IMG/VR virus record: IMGVR_UViG_3300020046_004077
Source of the DNA: a virus
Lineage: Duplodnaviria > Heunggongvirae > Uroviricota > Caudoviricetes
Length of the DNA stretch: 64,000 nt
Reading direction: 5' to 3' (one strand)
The position numbers and the translations under genes are program-made. Positions 46,329-59,033 of the stretch are shown in pieces. Each line of letters opens with the position of its first letter. Within the stretch, counting starts at the first letter, position 1. Below the pieces are notes generated by a model that was given only the letters and a program-made list of their open reading frames with translations, did not search any database and had not been told where the DNA came from.

Positions 46329-46684
46329 AAGACGGAATGATTGTATTCCCGGCAGTAGATCTGGAAGGTGATCGAAAATTAACCCTTGCGGCAGAAGTAC
46401 ATACTTTGCGTGATGATGAAGATGATGCAGTTGGAAGAGTAGCTACATTTGGTTATTCAATAAAGAATCCCAGTGATAAAGAGAATACCGAATTAGCTAA
46501 AGTAATTGCTAAAGGAAGGGCTTCAAAGAGTCCTGTTTTTATCTTCTCTACAGCAGGTTATGATATGCCAAGAGAGTTACTTAACAAAGTAGCAACTGTA
46601 GTACAAGAAGAGTTTAAAACACGACTTAATTACTACGTTCCATTATCAAAGAAAAAAGATGGAACAAGCAAAAAGATTCAATAA
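46325..46684 (+). CDS. hypothetical protein
   Basis: 119-aa ORF. Confidence 0.3.
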   Translation: MKDGMIVFPAVDLEGDRKLTLAAEVHTLRDDEDDAVGRVATFGYSIKNPSDKENTELAKVIAKGRASKSPVFIFSTAGYDMPRELLNKVATVVQEEFKTRLNYYVPLSKKKDGTSKKIQ

Positions 46685-46997
46685 AGGCAAACTCCGCTGG
46701 GGTTTAGTTGATTTTGAAGCAGTTGGTGAAATGGTCAAAGTCCTGGAAGCAGGAGCAATTAAGTACGGACCTGATAATTGGAAAAAAGGATTAAACAGAG
46801 AAGAAATCCTTGAATCAATACAGAGACACTTAATTTCAACCTTTGAAAAAGAAGAGGTTGATCAGGAACTTGGCACTTATCACATAGCTAACATAATGGC
46901 TAACTGTATGTTTTACCTATACCATCACAGAAATGATAGTTTCAGTGATCAAAGGAACAATCCCTTTGTAAAACAAGAGATTGAAAAGAAGGCTTAA
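46659..46997 (+). CDS. dATP/dGTP pyrophosphohydrolase-like protein (N-terminal domain type)
   Basis: NKGKLRWGLVDFEAV...AGAIKYGPDNWKKG resembles the NxGKxRxxLxP...GAxKY..NW signature of phage dNTP diphosphohydrolase domains. Confidence 0.4.
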   Translation: MEQAKRFNKGKLRWGLVDFEAVGEMVKVLEAGAIKYGPDNWKKGLNREEILESIQRHLISTFEKEEVDQELGTYHIANIMANCMFYLYHHRNDSFSDQRNNPFVKQEIEKKA

Positions 46998-47316: not shown

Positions 47317-47562
47317 ATGAGCACACGTAAAATTGTGGGGACATCTACAGCAGCACCAGGTCAGAACACTGTCTTTTCGGCAGCTACTACCTGGGGCCAG
47401 CTGAAGAGCGAAGACGCTGAATTAGGCGCTCGGTCCATTGGAATGAAAGCCTTTGTAAAAGAAACCAGTACTTCTCTTACAAGCGACAGTCAATCCCTAC
47501 CTGAAGGAGACTTTACATTGTACTTCTTAGTAGAGAAAAATGACTCAGGCAAAAACGACTAA
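47317..47562 (+). CDS. candidate ThiS/MoaD-like beta-grasp ubiquitin-like protein with C-terminal tail beyond a Gly
   Basis: 81 aa; C-terminus EGDFTLYFLVEKNDSG-KND parallels MoaD/ThiS dGDEVAFFPPVsGG; N-terminus RKIVGTS... could form the first beta-strand. Confidence 0.35.
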   Translation: MSTRKIVGTSTAAPGQNTVFSAATTWGQLKSEDAELGARSIGMKAFVKETSTSLTSDSQSLPEGDFTLYFLVEKNDSGKND

Positions 47563-47759
47563 CGAAGAATCAGGTAATGTTATTCCTGAAGTGCTTGAAG
47601 TTATAGATGCTTTTGTAAAGCAGTTTGAACAACAAAATCACTTAGTGAATAGCAAAAAACCAAGCGAAGAAGACGATACTCCTTTCTAAAAGGAAAAATA
47701 GAGTTTTTATTTAAAGGTGGGGTTAATACCTCACCTTTTTACTCTTTGCAAACAGATAA

Positions 47760-49031
47760 ATGAGAAAATTATTTAAAATTAGCCGAAAGGCTATAGAAGA
47801 ATTTTATGGTTCTTATCCTAGATACGTTACTCACTATTCCTTGGGTCCCGGACATTCAGAAGGAAGACATAAACTACCAGTCAAAGAAGAATATGATTTA
47901 AGTGTATTAGCAAATCACGGTCCAGTATCTTATGTAAAGGTACACGGTATTGGAGATAGTGCATTTTTACCCGTATTACGTAAAGATTTAATAGAAGTTG
48001 AGTTACCAGATGCTATAGTTGAATTTAAAGAAGTGTTGGAGAGCTTACATCCTGGGCATTATTATATGCCTGACGATAATGGTATAATTTACATTCACTA
48101 CCCTGAGTTAACAATAACTAACAGTCATGATGCAAGTCATAAAATCTATGACTTAGTTGTTAATTTTACAGTAGATCCAACAAACGGTACTTTACTTTCA
48201 TCTTTATATGGTATGAGGTTCTCTTTAAGTCAAAGAGAACTAGCAAAAGGTTACATTCATTCACACTTAAAAACTAATTATCACTCTTTTAATAATCCTT
48301 TCTGTTTAGGGGGAGGTAGTACCTTTCAAAAGATGGTCAATAATTTGTGTTGTTCAGGCAGTGTGACAAAGGAACAGTTTGAGTTATTTATTTTACAGTT
48401 AAACTCTTATTTATGTTGGGAAAGTCTTGAAGGTACTCCCCACATGAGTATTTTAAGCTTGTCTGGAGCTATAGCAGATTCTGGAGATAGTGCTTTTCGT
48501 ACAACAGATGAAATTTTAAATCTGGAAAAGTTAGGTGGTAAAACATGTATGTCTTTTATTGATACTAATCTTGACAGCATTTACTTTACTCCATTAGGAA
48601 TTCCTGTATTTGATCCTGGTCTGGTTAGCAAAAAGTTTTTTGACTTTGAGGTAAATACTTTAACTAAAATAGTAGCTGGGGCTCACTTAAAACAGTGGAA
48701 TGAAGATACAGGACAGTATGTGGTTAGTGGAGTTAATCAGACTTCAAACACTTATAGCTTACCGAGAGATGTTTTAGATTACTATGAAAGCTATAGACTT
48801 AATAAACACCTTCCTGGTATCAAACCAAGAGTGATAGAAGAAGAACAAAATACGAATAAAACAAAAACAATTACCAGGTTATCAAGAACAGCAATAGAGG
48901 TAGTAACCAGAGGAACTAATTCAATATTGATACAAGCATTAAATAAACATGCAAAAAGAACAAACCCCAAAGAGGGAAGTACTAGTAGTAGTAACAGAGA
49001 AGTTAGCAGGGCAAATACACTTCCTGCATAG
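47760..49031 (+). CDS. unknown 423-aa protein in Ubl/JAB/E1 cassette (candidate E2-like or substrate)
   Basis: No clear motif; HSFNNPFCLGGGS and LCCSGS Cys patches; overlaps JAB ORF by 83 nt. Confidence 0.3.
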   Translation: MRKLFKISRKAIEEFYGSYPRYVTHYSLGPGHSEGRHKLPVKEEYDLSVLANHGPVSYVKVHGIGDSAFLPVLRKDLIEVELPDAIVEFKEVLESLHPGHYYMPDDNGIIYIHYPELTITNSHDASHKIYDLVVNFTVDPTNGTLLSSLYGMRFSLSQRELAKGYIHSHLKTNYHSFNNPFCLGGGSTFQKMVNNLCCSGSVTKEQFELFILQLNSYLCWESLEGTPHMSILSLSGAIADSGDSAFRTTDEILNLEKLGGKTCMSFIDTNLDSIYFTPLGIPVFDPGLVSKKFFDFEVNTLTKIVAGAHLKQWNEDTGQYVVSGVNQTSNTYSLPRDVLDYYESYRLNKHLPGIKPRVIEEEQNTNKTKTITRLSRTAIEVVTRGTNSILIQALNKHAKRTNPKEGSTSSSNREVSRANTLPA

Positions 49032-50046
49032 TCAATGTCCTACAGGAACAGAATGGTCAGGACTTTTAGTCTACCAAATTGTTGAAGGGGATGTTGACGA
49101 ATTCACAAAAAACGATAAAGCTTACTTAGAAATAAAGGCTGAAGCTGTGTTCCCAATGGATTTTGGAGACGCAGGATTCACCAGCTTTGAGGGGAGTGTA
49201 GATTGGATTAAATGTTTCCAGCAATACCCTCAAATTGATCCAATGAATCCCGAACCGGGCTGGTATGTGGGTAAAATTCATAGCCACCATAACATGAACG
49301 TGTTTCATTCAGTAACAGATAACACTGACTTAGAACAAAATGCTCCTAAGTTACCTATCTTCCTTTCACTTATTGTAAATTATAAGTGTGAGTTAGATTG
49401 CAAATTAGCGATTGCTATGGAGTCCAAGGAGATAGTTCTTACAAGAACAGAATGGAAGTTTAAGAGTTGGAAGACTTGGAAAAAAGCGGTAAAGAAAGAG
49501 GAAAAACAAAAACCTGGTGTATTTACCATTGCTTGTAAGACTACTTATGAGCAAGAAGATTGGTTTGTAGATCAAACAGAACAGCTTGCAGCAAGAAAGA
49601 AAACCTCGCAGTATAGCTACAAACCACCTCAACAAGAAAGTACTAATAAAGTATTACTTCCCCATGAGGGAGATGCGGCTACAGACGTTAGTCAGGAAAC
49701 AATGAAGAGAGTTCTTAATAACTTCCCGGAACTTGTTTCTTTAAACTGTTTGAAGTTAGTAACTCCACTTGAATCAATAACAGTAGTTGATCGGGATTTG
49801 AAGGTGGAAGATATGGAAAACTATAAGAAAGCGTTTAAAGCTTACTTTACAAGTGTTTGGTTTGATAAACACTTTTCTGACACTAAGATTGAACATACAG
49901 AAGTTCTTGATGGTATTAGGAAGTTTCTAAATCATCATCACGGTTGGCTTGTAGGACATTTAAAGAATTTAACTAATGAGCTCAGAGAAGAATACGACTC
50001 ACTTTGGCCGTTTCAAGGGTCTTCCGTGGTTCGAGCCGATCTCTAA
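48949..50046 (+). CDS. JAB/MPN+ (JAMM) metallopeptidase with ~200-aa C-terminal extension
   Basis: N-terminal domain: ...TEWSGLLVYQ (conserved Glu) ... GWYVGKIHSHHNMNVFHSVTD = H-x-H-x7-S-x2-D JAMM zinc motif. Confidence 0.65.
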   Translation: MQKEQTPKREVLVVVTEKLAGQIHFLHSQCPTGTEWSGLLVYQIVEGDVDEFTKNDKAYLEIKAEAVFPMDFGDAGFTSFEGSVDWIKCFQQYPQIDPMNPEPGWYVGKIHSHHNMNVFHSVTDNTDLEQNAPKLPIFLSLIVNYKCELDCKLAIAMESKEIVLTRTEWKFKSWKTWKKAVKKEEKQKPGVFTIACKTTYEQEDWFVDQTEQLAARKKTSQYSYKPPQQESTNKVLLPHEGDAATDVSQETMKRVLNNFPELVSLNCLKLVTPLESITVVDRDLKVEDMENYKKAFKAYFTSVWFDKHFSDTKIEHTEVLDGIRKFLNHHHGWLVGHLKNLTNELREEYDSLWPFQGSSVVRADL

Positions 50047-50731
50047 TTCCAGTATCTTTATTGGAGGTGCTGGAGGAATATCATCCTGGTTAACTTTCTT
50101 TCTTGCAAGAGCCGGGGCTACTATTTATGTAGTAGACAACGATGTAGTAGATGAAGTAAATCTTGCCGGTCAATTGTACGGTAAGGAAGACGTAGGTAAG
50201 AGTAAAGTTGAAGCCATTTCAGATGTAGTTACAAGACTTTGTGGAGAGAATAACATAACCCCTGTAGAAACCTTTATAGATGAAAATGGAGGGTTGTGGA
50301 CTAACTTGATAGCTCAGAGTGATGTAGTTTGCGTAGGTTTTGACAACCTTAAAGCAAGGGAACTTGTATACAAGGAGTGGAGGGCTAATGGTAAAGAAAA
50401 GTCATTCTTTGTTGACGGAAGATTGTCAGCAGAAAATGGTCAGATTTTCACTCTTTCCAAAGACTCTTTGGAACTGGATTTTACAGCTTATGAGCAAACT
50501 TATTTTCCTGAATCAGAAAGGGTAGAATTACCTTGCAGTATGAAAGCTACAAGTCATTGCGGGGCTTTAATAGCATCATTAATGACTGCTCAGATTACTA
50601 ATTGGTTTAATAATGGTTTAGAGGAGAATGTTCCAAGAACTACTTCAAATATTGAATTTCATTTACAATTAATGATTTTCGATCAACCAAAGTACAAAGT
50701 AAAAACAGAAGTTTATGTTAACGAAGTTTAG
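49976..50731 (+). CDS. ThiF/MoeB/E1-like adenylyltransferase (ubiquitin-activating-enzyme family)
   Basis: IFIGGAGGISSWLTFFLARAGATIYVVDNDVVDEVNLAGQ = E1 Rossmann GxGxxG plus D-x-D...N-L-x-x-Q nucleotide-binding signature; CGALIASLMTAQI matches the E1 G..G...A.E..K region; Cys in PCSMKATSHCG. Confidence 0.65.
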   Translation: MSSEKNTTHFGRFKGLPWFEPISNSSIFIGGAGGISSWLTFFLARAGATIYVVDNDVVDEVNLAGQLYGKEDVGKSKVEAISDVVTRLCGENNITPVETFIDENGGLWTNLIAQSDVVCVGFDNLKARELVYKEWRANGKEKSFFVDGRLSAENGQIFTLSKDSLELDFTAYEQTYFPESERVELPCSMKATSHCGALIASLMTAQITNWFNNGLEENVPRTTSNIEFHLQLMIFDQPKYKVKTEVYVNEV

Positions 50732-51551
50732 TGGAGAAGAATGGATTTTAACTTATCCAGTTGAAGTAACAAGCCCTGATCAGTTTATTCCTTTATTTAC
50801 AGCTTTCGATTCTGATGTTATTTACACTCACAGAAGGTATAGATTCAACTACGTTCTACAGGGGCAGGGGATGTATTTAGTTTTATCTGATGAAAAAGAC
50901 TTGGGAGTTAGTAGCAAAAACTATACAGCAGAGGAGGTAAGAGAAAGACTAATAAAACAATTCAACTATAGTTATCCTGACAGATATTCAGTTCCTTTAA
51001 GTTACAGGGTTGTTAAGAATAATGTTAGTTATGGCTCAGGCTGGAATGACTTAGTTAAGACTTTTAACGGGTTGTCTCCATGCTTCTATGATGGTACTTA
51101 TTATGCACTTCCAGGTTTGGTTTGTAAAATGCAAGGTTCTAATTACAGTTCTGCAATAAGCACCTTGTCCAGTAAACAATTTTTAGCTCATACTATTTTC
51201 AGGAGACATGATTTGTTGTTTGCTTTTAAACCATGTGCTTTAGTGTTAGTTAAAGCTAAACATATTCCACTAATAAGAATATGCCAGCATTTAGAACAAC
51301 CTTTCAACATTCCTTTTGAAGACTTTAAACTCTTTACTATAAACAACCCTGACGTTTACGAAGGCAGGGCTATTAAGGAAGTATTGTCAACAAGTAGTGG
51401 ATTTGGGCAGTTTATAAGCAAGAACAGTGTGGAAAGGAACTATGTAGACAAAGAGGTAATGGATAGTTATTTAATTGGTCCTTACAGTGTTCCTTCTAAA
51501 GCAAACCTTGTAGAACTTGCTAAAACTGTAGTTGAAGAACAAAACCTTTAA
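50715..51551 (+). CDS. unknown 278-aa protein downstream of E1
   Basis: No motif recognised; start overlaps E1 stop. Confidence 0.3.
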   Translation: MLTKFSGEEWILTYPVEVTSPDQFIPLFTAFDSDVIYTHRRYRFNYVLQGQGMYLVLSDEKDLGVSSKNYTAEEVRERLIKQFNYSYPDRYSVPLSYRVVKNNVSYGSGWNDLVKTFNGLSPCFYDGTYYALPGLVCKMQGSNYSSAISTLSSKQFLAHTIFRRHDLLFAFKPCALVLVKAKHIPLIRICQHLEQPFNIPFEDFKLFTINNPDVYEGRAIKEVLSTSSGFGQFISKNSVERNYVDKEVMDSYLIGPYSVPSKANLVELAKTVVEEQNL

Positions 51552-57129: not shown

Positions 57130-57321
57130 ATGGGGTCGATTTTGAGTCGAATTAACGATGACTACGAAGAATATGAGTACGTATGTGATTTATTGAACAT
57201 ACGTCCTCATTTCTTGAGAGGGTTAAAAGAAGGAGATACTTTCTACAACCACCTTAAACAACTCTGTAATGAACATGGTGTTCATACAGTAGATGAATTA
57301 ATTAAAAAATTGAAAAAATGA
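57130..57321 (+). CDS. hypothetical small protein
   Basis: 63-aa ORF. Confidence 0.25.
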   Translation: MGSILSRINDDYEEYEYVCDLLNIRPHFLRGLKEGDTFYNHLKQLCNEHGVHTVDELIKKLKK

Positions 57322-59033
57322 ATCCACTACTATTAGTTGATTATTATAAAACGGAACATCATCGTATGCTACCAGAAGGTACTACAATGATCTATTCCAA
57401 CTTCACTCCAAGAAAGAGTAGAATTCCTGGAATAGACAAGGTTGTATTCTTTGGATTACAGCATTTCTGTCTTGAGTATTTGATTAAAGAATTTGACAAG
57501 CTCTTCTTTCACAAACAGGACATAGAGAATGAAGTTGAAAGACTTGGAGGTCTTCAAGGAGTTGACAGTAAAACATTAACCACTATCAAGTTAATTTACA
57601 AGTCCTCTGTTATTAAAGAGTATCAGAAGCACATTCCTGTAGATACTAAGCACATTGAAGCTTTGTGGGATTTAGGTTATTTACCTATTGAAATTAAAGC
57701 TGTTCCAGAAGGTACTTTAGTTCCAATTGGAGTTCCCTGCTTTACAATTAAAAATACACATCCTGACTTTGCCTGGTTAACAAATTACTTGGAAACCTTA
57801 ATTTCAACTATGATGTGGCAACCAATTACTTCAGCAACAATAGCTTATGAATACAAAAAAGTCCTTTCAAAATACGCATTGGAAACTACAGGATCTTCAG
57901 AATTCGTTCAGTGGCAAGGTCATGACTTTTCTATGCGTGGTATGTCTAGTATTGAATCCGCTATTCTTTCTGGCATGGGTCATCTTACATCGTTTACCGG
58001 AACGGATACTATTCCAGCTATATATCAGCTTGAAGAATCTTACGGAGCTACAGGGCTTATCGGTGCTTCTGTACCTGCTACTGAGCACAGTGTTATGTGT
58101 ATGGGTACTAAAGAAGCTGAGGTGGACACCTTCAAAAGGCTTCTGGATCTATATCCTACTGGTATTCTTAGTGTCGTTTCTGATACATGGAATCTTTGGG
58201 AAGTCCTGACAGTTCACCTTCCTCAAATTAAGGATCAAATCCTTTCAAGAGATGGTAAACTTGTTATTCGTCCAGATTCTGGTGACCCTGTAGATATTCT
58301 ATGTGGAGTAGAGTATTATCAAAATACGGATGGGAAATATTACTACAAGCGTGGAGGACAACTTAAGGAAGTACCTGAACCAGAAAGAAAAGGTGTAATT
58401 GAACTTCTCTGGGATTTGTTTGGAGGTAAAGTAAATGAATATGGATATAAAGAACTTGATCCTCATATTGGTGCTATCTATGGCGATTCTATCACTCTGG
58501 AACGTGCCGCTCAGATTTGTGAGAGACTCAAAGCTAAAGGTTTCGCTTCGACTAATGTGGTTCTTGGTATTGGTAGTTACACTTACCAGTATAATACTCG
58601 TGATACTTTCGGCTTTGCGATGAAAGCTACCTACGGTGAAGTATTAAATGTACCTACTGTTAAAGTAAAGAAGGCTGGAGGAGAAGAAGTTGAAATAGCT
58701 TTTGATCGTTCTAACCCTAAACATCTTGATCTTATCAAAGCAACTTACAGTCTGACTGGTAGAGAAGATCTTGTTGAAACTAGAGAAATCTACAAAGATC
58801 CAATTACTGATGATGGTACTAAGAGGTCTAAGAAAGGTCTTTTACAAGTATTTAACAATTATTGGGATACTCATCCAGCAATGCAGAAGTTTGATGGAAC
58901 TGATGAGTTGAAAGTAAATGATCAATGTACTTGGGAACAAGAAAACGGAGGCTTACTTGAAACTGTTTTCAAAAACGGTGAGTTAGTAAGAACTACTACC
59001 CTGGAAGAAATCAGAGAAAGATTGAAAGTATGA
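57318..59033 (+). CDS. nadV: nicotinamide phosphoribosyltransferase (NadV/Nampt) with C-terminal extension
   Basis: 571 aa; N-terminus MNPLLLVDYYKTEHHRMLPEGTT matches the Nampt N-terminal motif (D-x-YK-x-xH); overall type II PRTase-like. Confidence 0.65.
   Translation: MNPLLLVDYYKTEHHRMLPEGTTMIYSNFTPRKSRIPGIDKVVFFGLQHFCLEYLIKEFDKLFFHKQDIENEVERLGGLQGVDSKTLTTIKLIYKSSVIKEYQKHIPVDTKHIEALWDLGYLPIEIKAVPEGTLVPIGVPCFTIKNTHPDFAWLTNYLETLISTMMWQPITSATIAYEYKKVLSKYALETTGSSEFVQWQGHDFSMRGMSSIESAILSGMGHLTSFTGTDTIPAIYQLEESYGATGLIGASVPATEHSVMCMGTKEAEVDTFKRLLDLYPTGILSVVSDTWNLWEVLTVHLPQIKDQILSRDGKLVIRPDSGDPVDILCGVEYYQNTDGKYYYKRGGQLKEVPEPERKGVIELLWDLFGGKVNEYGYKELDPHIGAIYGDSITLERAAQICERLKAKGFASTNVVLGIGSYTYQYNTRDTFGFAMKATYGEVLNVPTVKVKKAGGEEVEIAFDRSNPKHLDLIKATYSLTGREDLVETREIYKDPITDDGTKRSKKGLLQVFNNYWDTHPAMQKFDGTDELKVNDQCTWEQENGGLLETVFKNGELVRTTTLEEIRERLKV

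Follow-up and report, generated by a model that had tools for sequence, protein, structure and literature searches.

Organization of the locus

We analyzed a 64,000-nucleotide stretch of DNA (the window) from a Caudoviricetes virus (IMG/VR record IMGVR_UViG_3300020046_004077), in which a first-pass annotation had put forward the small gene at positions 47317-47562 as a candidate ubiquitin-like protein (Ubl) carrying three residues past a Ser-Gly. This small open reading frame (ORF) was borne out: it encodes 81 amino acids (aa) ending in ...LPEGDFTLYFLVEKNDSGKND, with the Gly78 codon at 47548-47550 followed by K-N-D and the stop codon. The C-terminal string quoted in that annotation is indeed present, but it comprises 19 residues rather than the 16 stated. 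Four further ORFs follow on the same strand, encoding a 49-aa product, a 423-aa protein (p423), a JAB peptidase and a ThiF-type E1. The JAB, which had been described as lying two genes downstream, is the third ORF after the Ubl and becomes the second only when the 49-aa ORF is ignored; the E1, located directly after the JAB gene, was absent from the first-pass annotation. The features of the locus are listed below.

47317..47562, plus strand: predicted Ubl precursor, 81 aa; ATG at 47317, stop codon at 47560-47562
Parts of the Ubl: beta-grasp domain at about residues 4-72; flexible tail at residues 73-78, ending K74-N-D-S77-G78; K-N-D cap encoded by 47551-47559, then the stop codon
47540..47689, plus strand: 49-aa ORF (ORF49) in the +1 frame, with its ATG inside the N-D-S-G codons of the Ubl
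47713..47738, plus strand: terminator-like hairpin with an 11-bp stem and a T-run, between the Ubl/ORF49 pair and the enzyme genes
47760..49031, plus strand: p423, 423 aa, second gene of the cassette; HSH motif at 48258-48266, Cys182 codon at 48303-48305
48949..50046, plus strand: JAB/JAMM (MPN+) metalloprotease, 365 aa, with an N-terminal catalytic domain and an unassigned C-terminal domain; overlaps both neighboring genes
49976..50731, plus strand: E1-like adenylating enzyme of the minimal ThiF/MoeB type, 251 aa; Pfam ThiF match at 1.4e-24

Synteny of the four genes in crAss-like phages

Using the E1 to retrieve 80 viral loci, we searched every ORF in them with hidden Markov models of the four proteins. 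In 61 loci, a count that includes the window and its close relatives, the genes for the Ubl, p423, JAB and E1 occurred in this strict order on one strand, tightly packed and often overlapping, and the p423 gene always lay between those of the Ubl and the JAB. The 61 loci spanned crAss001-like phages and Flavobacterium FpV4-like phages, and all 74 phage records found by tblastn with the E1 were likewise Flavobacterium FpV4-like or crAss-like (for example, relatives of crAss001). In FpV4 and cr85_1, the genes beside the Ubl are annotated as hypothetical proteins, a metalloprotease-domain protein and a ThiF "thiamine biosynthesis protein", and the gene in the Ubl position encodes a protein of 289 or 218 aa, the N-terminus of which is the Ubl domain ending in ...KQVKSGG... 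or ...NIKSGA....

Fold and conservation of the Ubl

Exhaustive HMMER profile searching of 1.84 billion proteins returned 131 cluster representatives (clusters at 50% identity) matching the Ubl profile at E<1e-3, a number that places the Ubl ORF far beyond chance. The Ubl domain was N-terminal in all 131, at approximately residues 2-80. The family was visible to profiles only: no match was obtained when the phage collection was searched with the cassette by blastn or with the Ubl by tblastn, and a word-indexed search found only three relatives of the Ubl, all of which kept K-N-[D/N]-S-G and differed in the residues after the Gly.

The single-sequence AlphaFold2 model of the Ubl was poor, with a predicted local distance difference test score (pLDDT) of 63; the model built from a 46-sequence alignment reached a pLDDT of 86.4, and showed strands at residues 4-10 and 16-21, helices at 26-40, strands at 43-47, 52-54 and 66-72, and a low-confidence tail from residue 73. 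The top 50 Foldseek matches of the latter model in the PDB were exclusively beta-grasp proteins, with template modeling (TM) scores of 0.5-0.67, and included DIX, MoaD (6jbz_B), ubiquitin, ISG15, SUMO and the bacterial Ubl BilA (8tyx_A). In a viral structure library, the best matches (TM 0.77-0.83) were unnamed crAss-like and Flavobacterium phage proteins, followed by giant-virus ubiquitins. The beta-grasp fold expected of the candidate was thus recovered. The resemblance to the MoaD/ThiS C-terminus from which the candidate had been proposed fared less well; the local alignment could be reproduced with E. coli MoaD (LPEGDFTLYF against LTDGDEVAFF), but it was not significant by itself (hhalign P=0.07), and the Ubl of the window had no match to the ThiS/MoaD family profile PF02597. 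The label of the Ubl in PHROGs is function unknown, and its best viral structure matches are named uncharacterized protein in UniProt.

Conservation of the C-terminus was counted in an alignment of 130 family members. Gly78 was conserved in 129 of the 130 and Lys74 in 124, position 77 was occupied by Ser (106 sequences) or Ala (23), and the LPEGDF segment ahead of the last strand was highly conserved across the alignment, while the positions past the Gly were without conservation. No member ended at the Gly; the post-Gly tails ranged from 1 to 232 aa with a median of 59, and about 30 members stopped 1-7 residues past it. As would be expected for a precursor, [S/A]-G was kept among homologues while the residues that follow varied in both sequence and length.

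A beta-grasp domain need not be a modifier, and many eukaryotic UBL-domain proteins are not conjugated. The Ubl could instead be a non-covalent docking or solubility domain of a DNA-binding protein, truncated or split in the window and never cleaved or activated, with the E1 and JAB acting on another substrate. Such a role would fit the larger size of most family members, in which the Ubl domain is N-terminal to a tail of 59 aa at the median, and the bona fide SAP motif in the tail of one member (P0122, E 5.7e-7). It would leave unexplained why the Gly is retained in 129 of 130 sequences though its C-terminal side varies freely, why some 30 proteins terminate within 1-7 residues of it, and why the gene is always adjacent to those of the E1 and JAB in a constant order. 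Moreover, the cassette has no other conserved small gene that could supply a substrate; the 278-aa gene downstream of the E1 is not conserved. We therefore regard a purely non-covalent role as improbable.

The JAB protease and the E1

The JAB, the sequence of which contains HSHHNMNVFHSVTD, matched Pfam Prok-JAB weakly (E 0.005) and gave a further weak NCBIfam match to PRTRC protein A (E 0.02). Its catalytic set is complete, consisting of E35 and H111-S-H113-x7-S121-x2-D124 (49279-49320), and was invariant in the family alignment. The JAB profile matched P. furiosus JAMM1 (5lda, the best match, 7.7e-7), Rpn11 (1e-6), CSN5, AMSH and BRCC36 in the PDB, which, by their assignment, are Ubl-specific proteases. 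Judged from its motif and these profile matches, the JAB is a real JAMM/MPN+ protease.

The E1 consists of a single ThiF domain over residues 19-217 and matched the ThiF, MoeB and SAMP-E1 models of NCBIfam (SAMP-activating E1, 1.4e-14), as well as the Cap2 E1-E2 models of PADLOC (1e-10). Against the PDB it matched MoeB (4.9e-8), MccB (1.5e-7) and PaaA (2.2e-6), and it also aligned with ThiF. The enzyme keeps the GGAGGIS nucleotide loop, D123 and a single invariant Cys187 (PC[S/T]MK, or PC[S/T]xK in the clade). This Cys lies about 64 residues past the Mg-binding Asp, and ThiF Cys184 and MoeB Cys187 have a similar spacing from that residue.

The appearance of MccB and PaaA among the best PDB matches of the E1 is what might be expected if the enzyme acted, as they do, on the C-terminus of a small protein or peptide to yield a bioactive product. 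However, the candidate substrate is no short peptide but a folded beta-grasp domain of 70 residues that ends in a Gly tail of the Ubl type, the N-terminal peptide clamp of the MccB type was not seen in the 251-aa E1, which is covered by the ThiF domain, and the JAB matches Ubl proteases. Peptide modification of this kind is extremely unlikely. Taken together, the beta-grasp fold, the conserved Gly followed by variable tails, the genuine JAMM/MPN+ protease and the E1 behind it argue, on sequence comparison and modeling, for the precursor Ubl that the first-pass annotation had suggested.

The second gene and the sister cassette

Sequence and profile searches with p423 gave no match in Pfam, NCBIfam, PADLOC or the PDB. 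The invariant residues in its family alignments were N121, Y165, H167-S-H169, C182-x-G184 and E221-S-L-x-G-x-P227, and some family members read HPH...FC[LF]G at the position of HSH...FCLG. More distant loci, which were retrieved via the E1 and JAB families, contained a sister cassette. Its first gene encodes a Ubl of 68-89 aa that matches Pfam ThiS (PF02597, E 1.3e-4 to 6e-4) and ends in ...KGG, either exactly or with 1-3 additional residues, and its second gene carries an invariant HP[H/Y/F][I/L/V]...C.G motif; the JAB and then the E1 follow. The two Ubl groups aligned with each other at hhalign P=0.017. The sister cassette was widespread, being present in viral contigs (L061-L084) and in contigs of metagenome-assembled genomes from many phyla (L089-L131), and the crAss-type Ubl and p423 families were not detected among the E1-retrieved loci of the genome collection.

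At E<=10, the core profile of the sister second gene matched 39 PDB sequences, every one of them a ubiquitin-conjugating E2 enzyme, with alignments covering HPN...Cys...helix...PNPDDP. The individual E values were weak (0.07-1.6), and we find the exclusivity of these profile matches telling. The same core aligned with human UBE2D2 at hhalign P=0.003, and the sister E2s had no match in Pfam or PADLOC. Two of them (in L072 and L084) end in Cys-rich, RING-like regions. The HPH-type members of the p423 family, in turn, aligned with the E2 core of the sister cassette at hhalign P=5e-4; hhalign of p423 with UBE2D2 itself was not significant. Because of its position, its motif and this transitive chain of weak similarities, we consider p423 reasonably likely to be a very divergent E2-like enzyme.

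In the PDB, the p423 core profile matched a CBM3 cellulose-binding module best (E 0.002). The match covers residues ~110-150 in the N-terminal part of the core (FPE.tItNs....H.I.DLyVk); it involves one beta-hairpin only, and was treated as chance.

Genomic setting and a possible sulfur carrier

The terminase large subunit (TerL), portal and major capsid proteins of the window matched crAss-type families, and the best tblastn matches of TerL were crAss-like phages at ~30% identity; on these marker genes, the window is a divergent crAss-like phage genome. Its cassette lies in a replication module, with a primase and a MazG-like diphosphohydrolase on one side and a resolvase and UDG on the other, and the cassette was always placed in a module of replication and repair genes. 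We considered the 278-aa gene that follows the E1 (50715..51551) as a fifth component but rejected it, as it was conserved only among near-identical phages. The MazG-like gene of the window (46659..46997) encodes a dATP/dGTP diphosphohydrolase N-terminal domain (PF18909); nicotinamide phosphoribosyltransferase and a PRPP-synthase-like protein are encoded at 57318-59033, and in close relatives (locus L002) the family A DNA polymerase is split by a LAGLIDADG endonuclease gene. These genes hint at nucleotide-pool or DNA-modification functions.

This setting bears on the main rival to a protein modifier, a sulfur carrier of the ThiS/MoaD type, in which the trimmed and adenylated Gly78 would be converted into a thiocarboxylate and p423 would thiolate a nucleotide, DNA, tRNA or a cofactor, with no protein being tagged. 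JAMM proteases are known to trim or release sulfur carriers, as in the QbsD/QbsE and Mec+/CysO pairs. The E1 is closest to ThiF and MoeB, the Ubls of the sister cassette match Pfam ThiS, MoaD is among the best structural matches of the Ubl, and the cassette sits amid genes of nucleotide and DNA metabolism, including the MazG-like diphosphohydrolase, all of which would suit such a carrier. However, no rhodanese, cysteine desulfurase, PP-loop ATPase, or ThiG, MoaE or CysM-like acceptor was found among the genes of the cassette or those flanking it. Sulfur carriers are not known to bear long tails fused after the Gly, some of which are SAP-like here; the cassette also shares its gene order with the Bil systems, which conjugate, and the second gene of the sister cassette is E2-like, whereas pure sulfur pathways have no E2 (PMC10557695). 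On balance, we hold a sulfur carrier to be unlikely as the explanation of the cassette.

Fused, split and missing tails

Most phages in the family carry the Ubl fused to a tail, as in gp53 of FpV4, and in the window ORF49 occupies the corresponding position in another frame. ORF49 had no match in Pfam, NCBIfam or PADLOC. It shares with the fused tails of seven family members (P0009, P0011, P0012, P0020, P0022, P0025 and P0029) the pattern PEVxExI[D/E]x[F/W] and a terminal PF, although the individual BLAST E values were weak. On this similarity, ORF49 probably corresponds to the C-terminal tail that sister phages have fused to their Ubl, and has been split off; the resemblance would place the split exactly at the predicted cleavage site. 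A CAAAAAC run at 47550-47556 would in principle permit a +1 slip joining the Ubl and ORF49 frames.

Other arrangements were found at the same position. In locus L001 (3600-3857), a tail-like ORF overlaps the Ubl end as in the window, in the +1 frame and with its ATG within the N-D-S-G codons; in L135 (4240-4539), the Ubl ends in KSGK and a TAATG stop/start overlap leads onto a 99-aa ORF; and in L134 the tail gene is absent. The position right after the Gly is thus an evolutionary break point at which fused, split and tail-less forms all occur.

By inspection, other fused tails contained Lys/Ala/Pro-rich histone-H1-like repeats or were strongly acidic to poly-acidic. Examples of the diversity of tails are P0122 (the SAP-containing member), P0038, P0052, P0058, P0102, P0047 and P0092. 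A BFVD match from cr126_1 bears a UniProt name with a bL12 C-terminal domain.

The hairpin at 47713-47738 had a folding energy of -19 kcal/mol (z -3.5), and none of 200 shuffled sequences folded as well. It may be an attenuator keeping the Ubl in excess over the enzymes.

Comparison with known Ubl systems

The closest organization is that of the bacterial BilABCD operons, in which the order is Ubl-E2-deubiquitinase-E1 and the JAB pre-processes the Ubl, exposing its Gly (PMC10557695). The phage cassette likewise has four genes in the same order and a Ubl made with residues past the reactive Gly, and BilA (8tyx_A) was among the Foldseek matches noted above. The two differ in location, the phage cassette residing in a replication module and Bil in a bacterial defence island, often with capH/capP. 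They also differ in the E1, which is a single 251-aa domain in the phage, whereas the Bil E1 has tandem inactive and active adenylation domains and a mobile inserted Cys domain. Furthermore, the phage Ubl and second gene belong to families without detectable similarity to known ones, PADLOC matching the E1 only, and many phage Ubls have long tails that look functional.

In Bub operons, a Ubl-E2 fusion (BubAB) is cleaved to release the functional Ubl (PMC11601596). Production of the Ubl from a fusion cut by a protease of the operon recalls the phage cassette, as does the small, homodimeric Bub E1 (PMC11601596). In contrast, Bub uses a serine protease and oxyester intermediates without catalytic cysteines (PMC11601596), while the phage cassette has a JAMM metalloprotease, and its E1 and p423 each keep an invariant Cys.

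A Ubl-JAB pair in phages has precedent in the tail-assembly proteins of lambda and T1, TAPI (a Ubl) and TAPK (JAB plus NlpC), for which the JAB has been predicted to cut at the Gly of the Ubl (PMC1779556). There too, a phage Ubl with a conserved Gly ending the beta-grasp domain is followed by a linker and a C-terminal domain, and is encoded beside a JAB (PMC1779556). Those pairs belong to the tail module and lack an E1 or E2, whereas the cassette of the window sits in the replication module and encodes an E1 and a probable E2 as well.

Among sulfur-carrier systems, ThiS/MoaD with ThiF/MoeB, and the QbsE/QbsD and CysO/Mec+ pairs, share with the phage cassette the beta-grasp fold, a GD-hydrophobic strand before the C-terminal Gly, an E1 of the ThiF/MoeB type and, in some, a JAMM protease. 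They differ in that the window Ubl lacks a GG end and a Pfam ThiS match, no sulfur-transfer or acceptor enzymes are nearby, and a probable E2-like gene is present. The archaeal SAMP/UbaA/JAMM1 system combines a small Ubl, a MoeB-like E1 and a JAMM protease, JAMM1 being the best PDB match of the phage JAB; SAMPylation, however, needs no E2, SAMPs end in GG, and the genes are cellular and do not form a fixed four-gene cassette. Finally, the Cap2/Cap3 proteins of type II cyclic oligonucleotide-based antiphage signaling systems (CBASS) have a similar E1 domain (the 1e-10 match in PADLOC) and a JAB partner, but the phage cassette has no CD-NTase, its E1 and E2 are unfused, and it relies on a dedicated beta-grasp Ubl and not on an enzyme's C-terminus.

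Proposed pathway

The fold of the Ubl, its conserved Gly with variable tails, the complete JAMM site, the identity of the E1 and the strict four-gene synteny were computed directly. From these, we consider it likely that the 81-aa protein is the precursor modifier of a phage-encoded ubiquitin-like system, which the JAB trims, the E1 activates and p423 passes on to targets. The JAB would cut after Gly78 and remove K-N-D; the same cut in sister phages would release tails as long as 232 residues, of which some are predicted to bind DNA. The E1 would then adenylate the exposed carboxylate of Gly78 and probably take the Ubl onto its conserved Cys187, perhaps as a thioester, from where the Ubl would move to Cys182 of p423, the putative divergent E2. 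From p423, it would be joined to lysines of one or more target proteins, and the JAB could also reverse the modification.

Several results weigh against this pathway. The Ubl had no Pfam match at E<=0.1 and none in NCBIfam or PADLOC, and its profile search of the PDB returned only noise. Its end is SG instead of GG; across the family the end is Ser-Gly or Ala-Gly in place of the di-glycine by which conjugatable Ubls are recognized. The first-pass annotation had called such a single Gly atypical, and it is unusual, yet it is not unprecedented. Atg8, Atg12 and Ufm1 likewise end in one Gly, and a di-glycine end is not strictly defining for type-1 Ubls. The small E1 lacks a separate Cys domain and is of a type typical of sulfur-carrier pathways, and the Arg of the NLxRQ motif is replaced throughout the phage E1 clade (N-x-x-G/C/S/N-Q), with the other adenylation residues kept. 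For p423, the whole-family profile aligned weakly with the sister E2s (hhalign P 0.0045-0.056), hmmsearch of that profile against the sister-cassette E2s was not significant, and the profile retrieved no E2s from the PDB. Finally, we infer every chemical step, the identity of the E2 and the existence of protein targets.

DNA-associated targets are a speculation, hinted at because the cassette is always located in the replication and repair module and some tails are SAP-like or histone-H1-like. Tentatively, and with somewhat more doubt than assent, we extend the proposal as follows: crAss-like phages (crAss001 and the FpV4 group among them) might encode a complete Ubl conjugation pathway of their own, tagging host or phage proteins, possibly DNA-bound, during replication, with the Ubl often fused to a DNA-binding tail that the JAB would release. 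Such a pathway would be a viral counterpart of Bil and Bub, and its E2 and Ubl would represent a highly divergent line of independent evolution.

Significance

Bacterial Ubl-E2-JAB-E1 cassettes are already known, as are Ubl and JAB pairs in lambda-like tail modules (PMC1779556). The phage-borne cassette, its minimal E1, the sequence-novel Ubl and E2-like families and the Ubl-tail fusions appear to be new; the full-text literature that we searched, which leaves out many subscription papers, contained no description of the cassette in crAss-like phages. Naming the Ubl and second-gene families would improve the annotation of many phage genomes, because both are invisible to Pfam, NCBIfam and PADLOC, PHROGs gives their function as unknown, and the best viral structure matches have UniProt names that read uncharacterized protein. 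The cassette is also directly testable, since crAss001, a gut phage, and FpV4-like phages have cultured hosts.

Taken together, our analysis suggests that crAss-like phages probably have a ubiquitin-like tagging system of their own that has so far escaped annotation. Conjugation of Ubls in bacteria has been shown only recently and, so far, as antiphage defence (CBASS Cap2, Bil and Bub). If the proposal is true, a phage-carried cassette of Ubl, E2-like enzyme, JAB and E1 would mean that the phage side of the conflict also uses this chemistry, where it could serve take-over of the host, regulation of replication or counter-defence.
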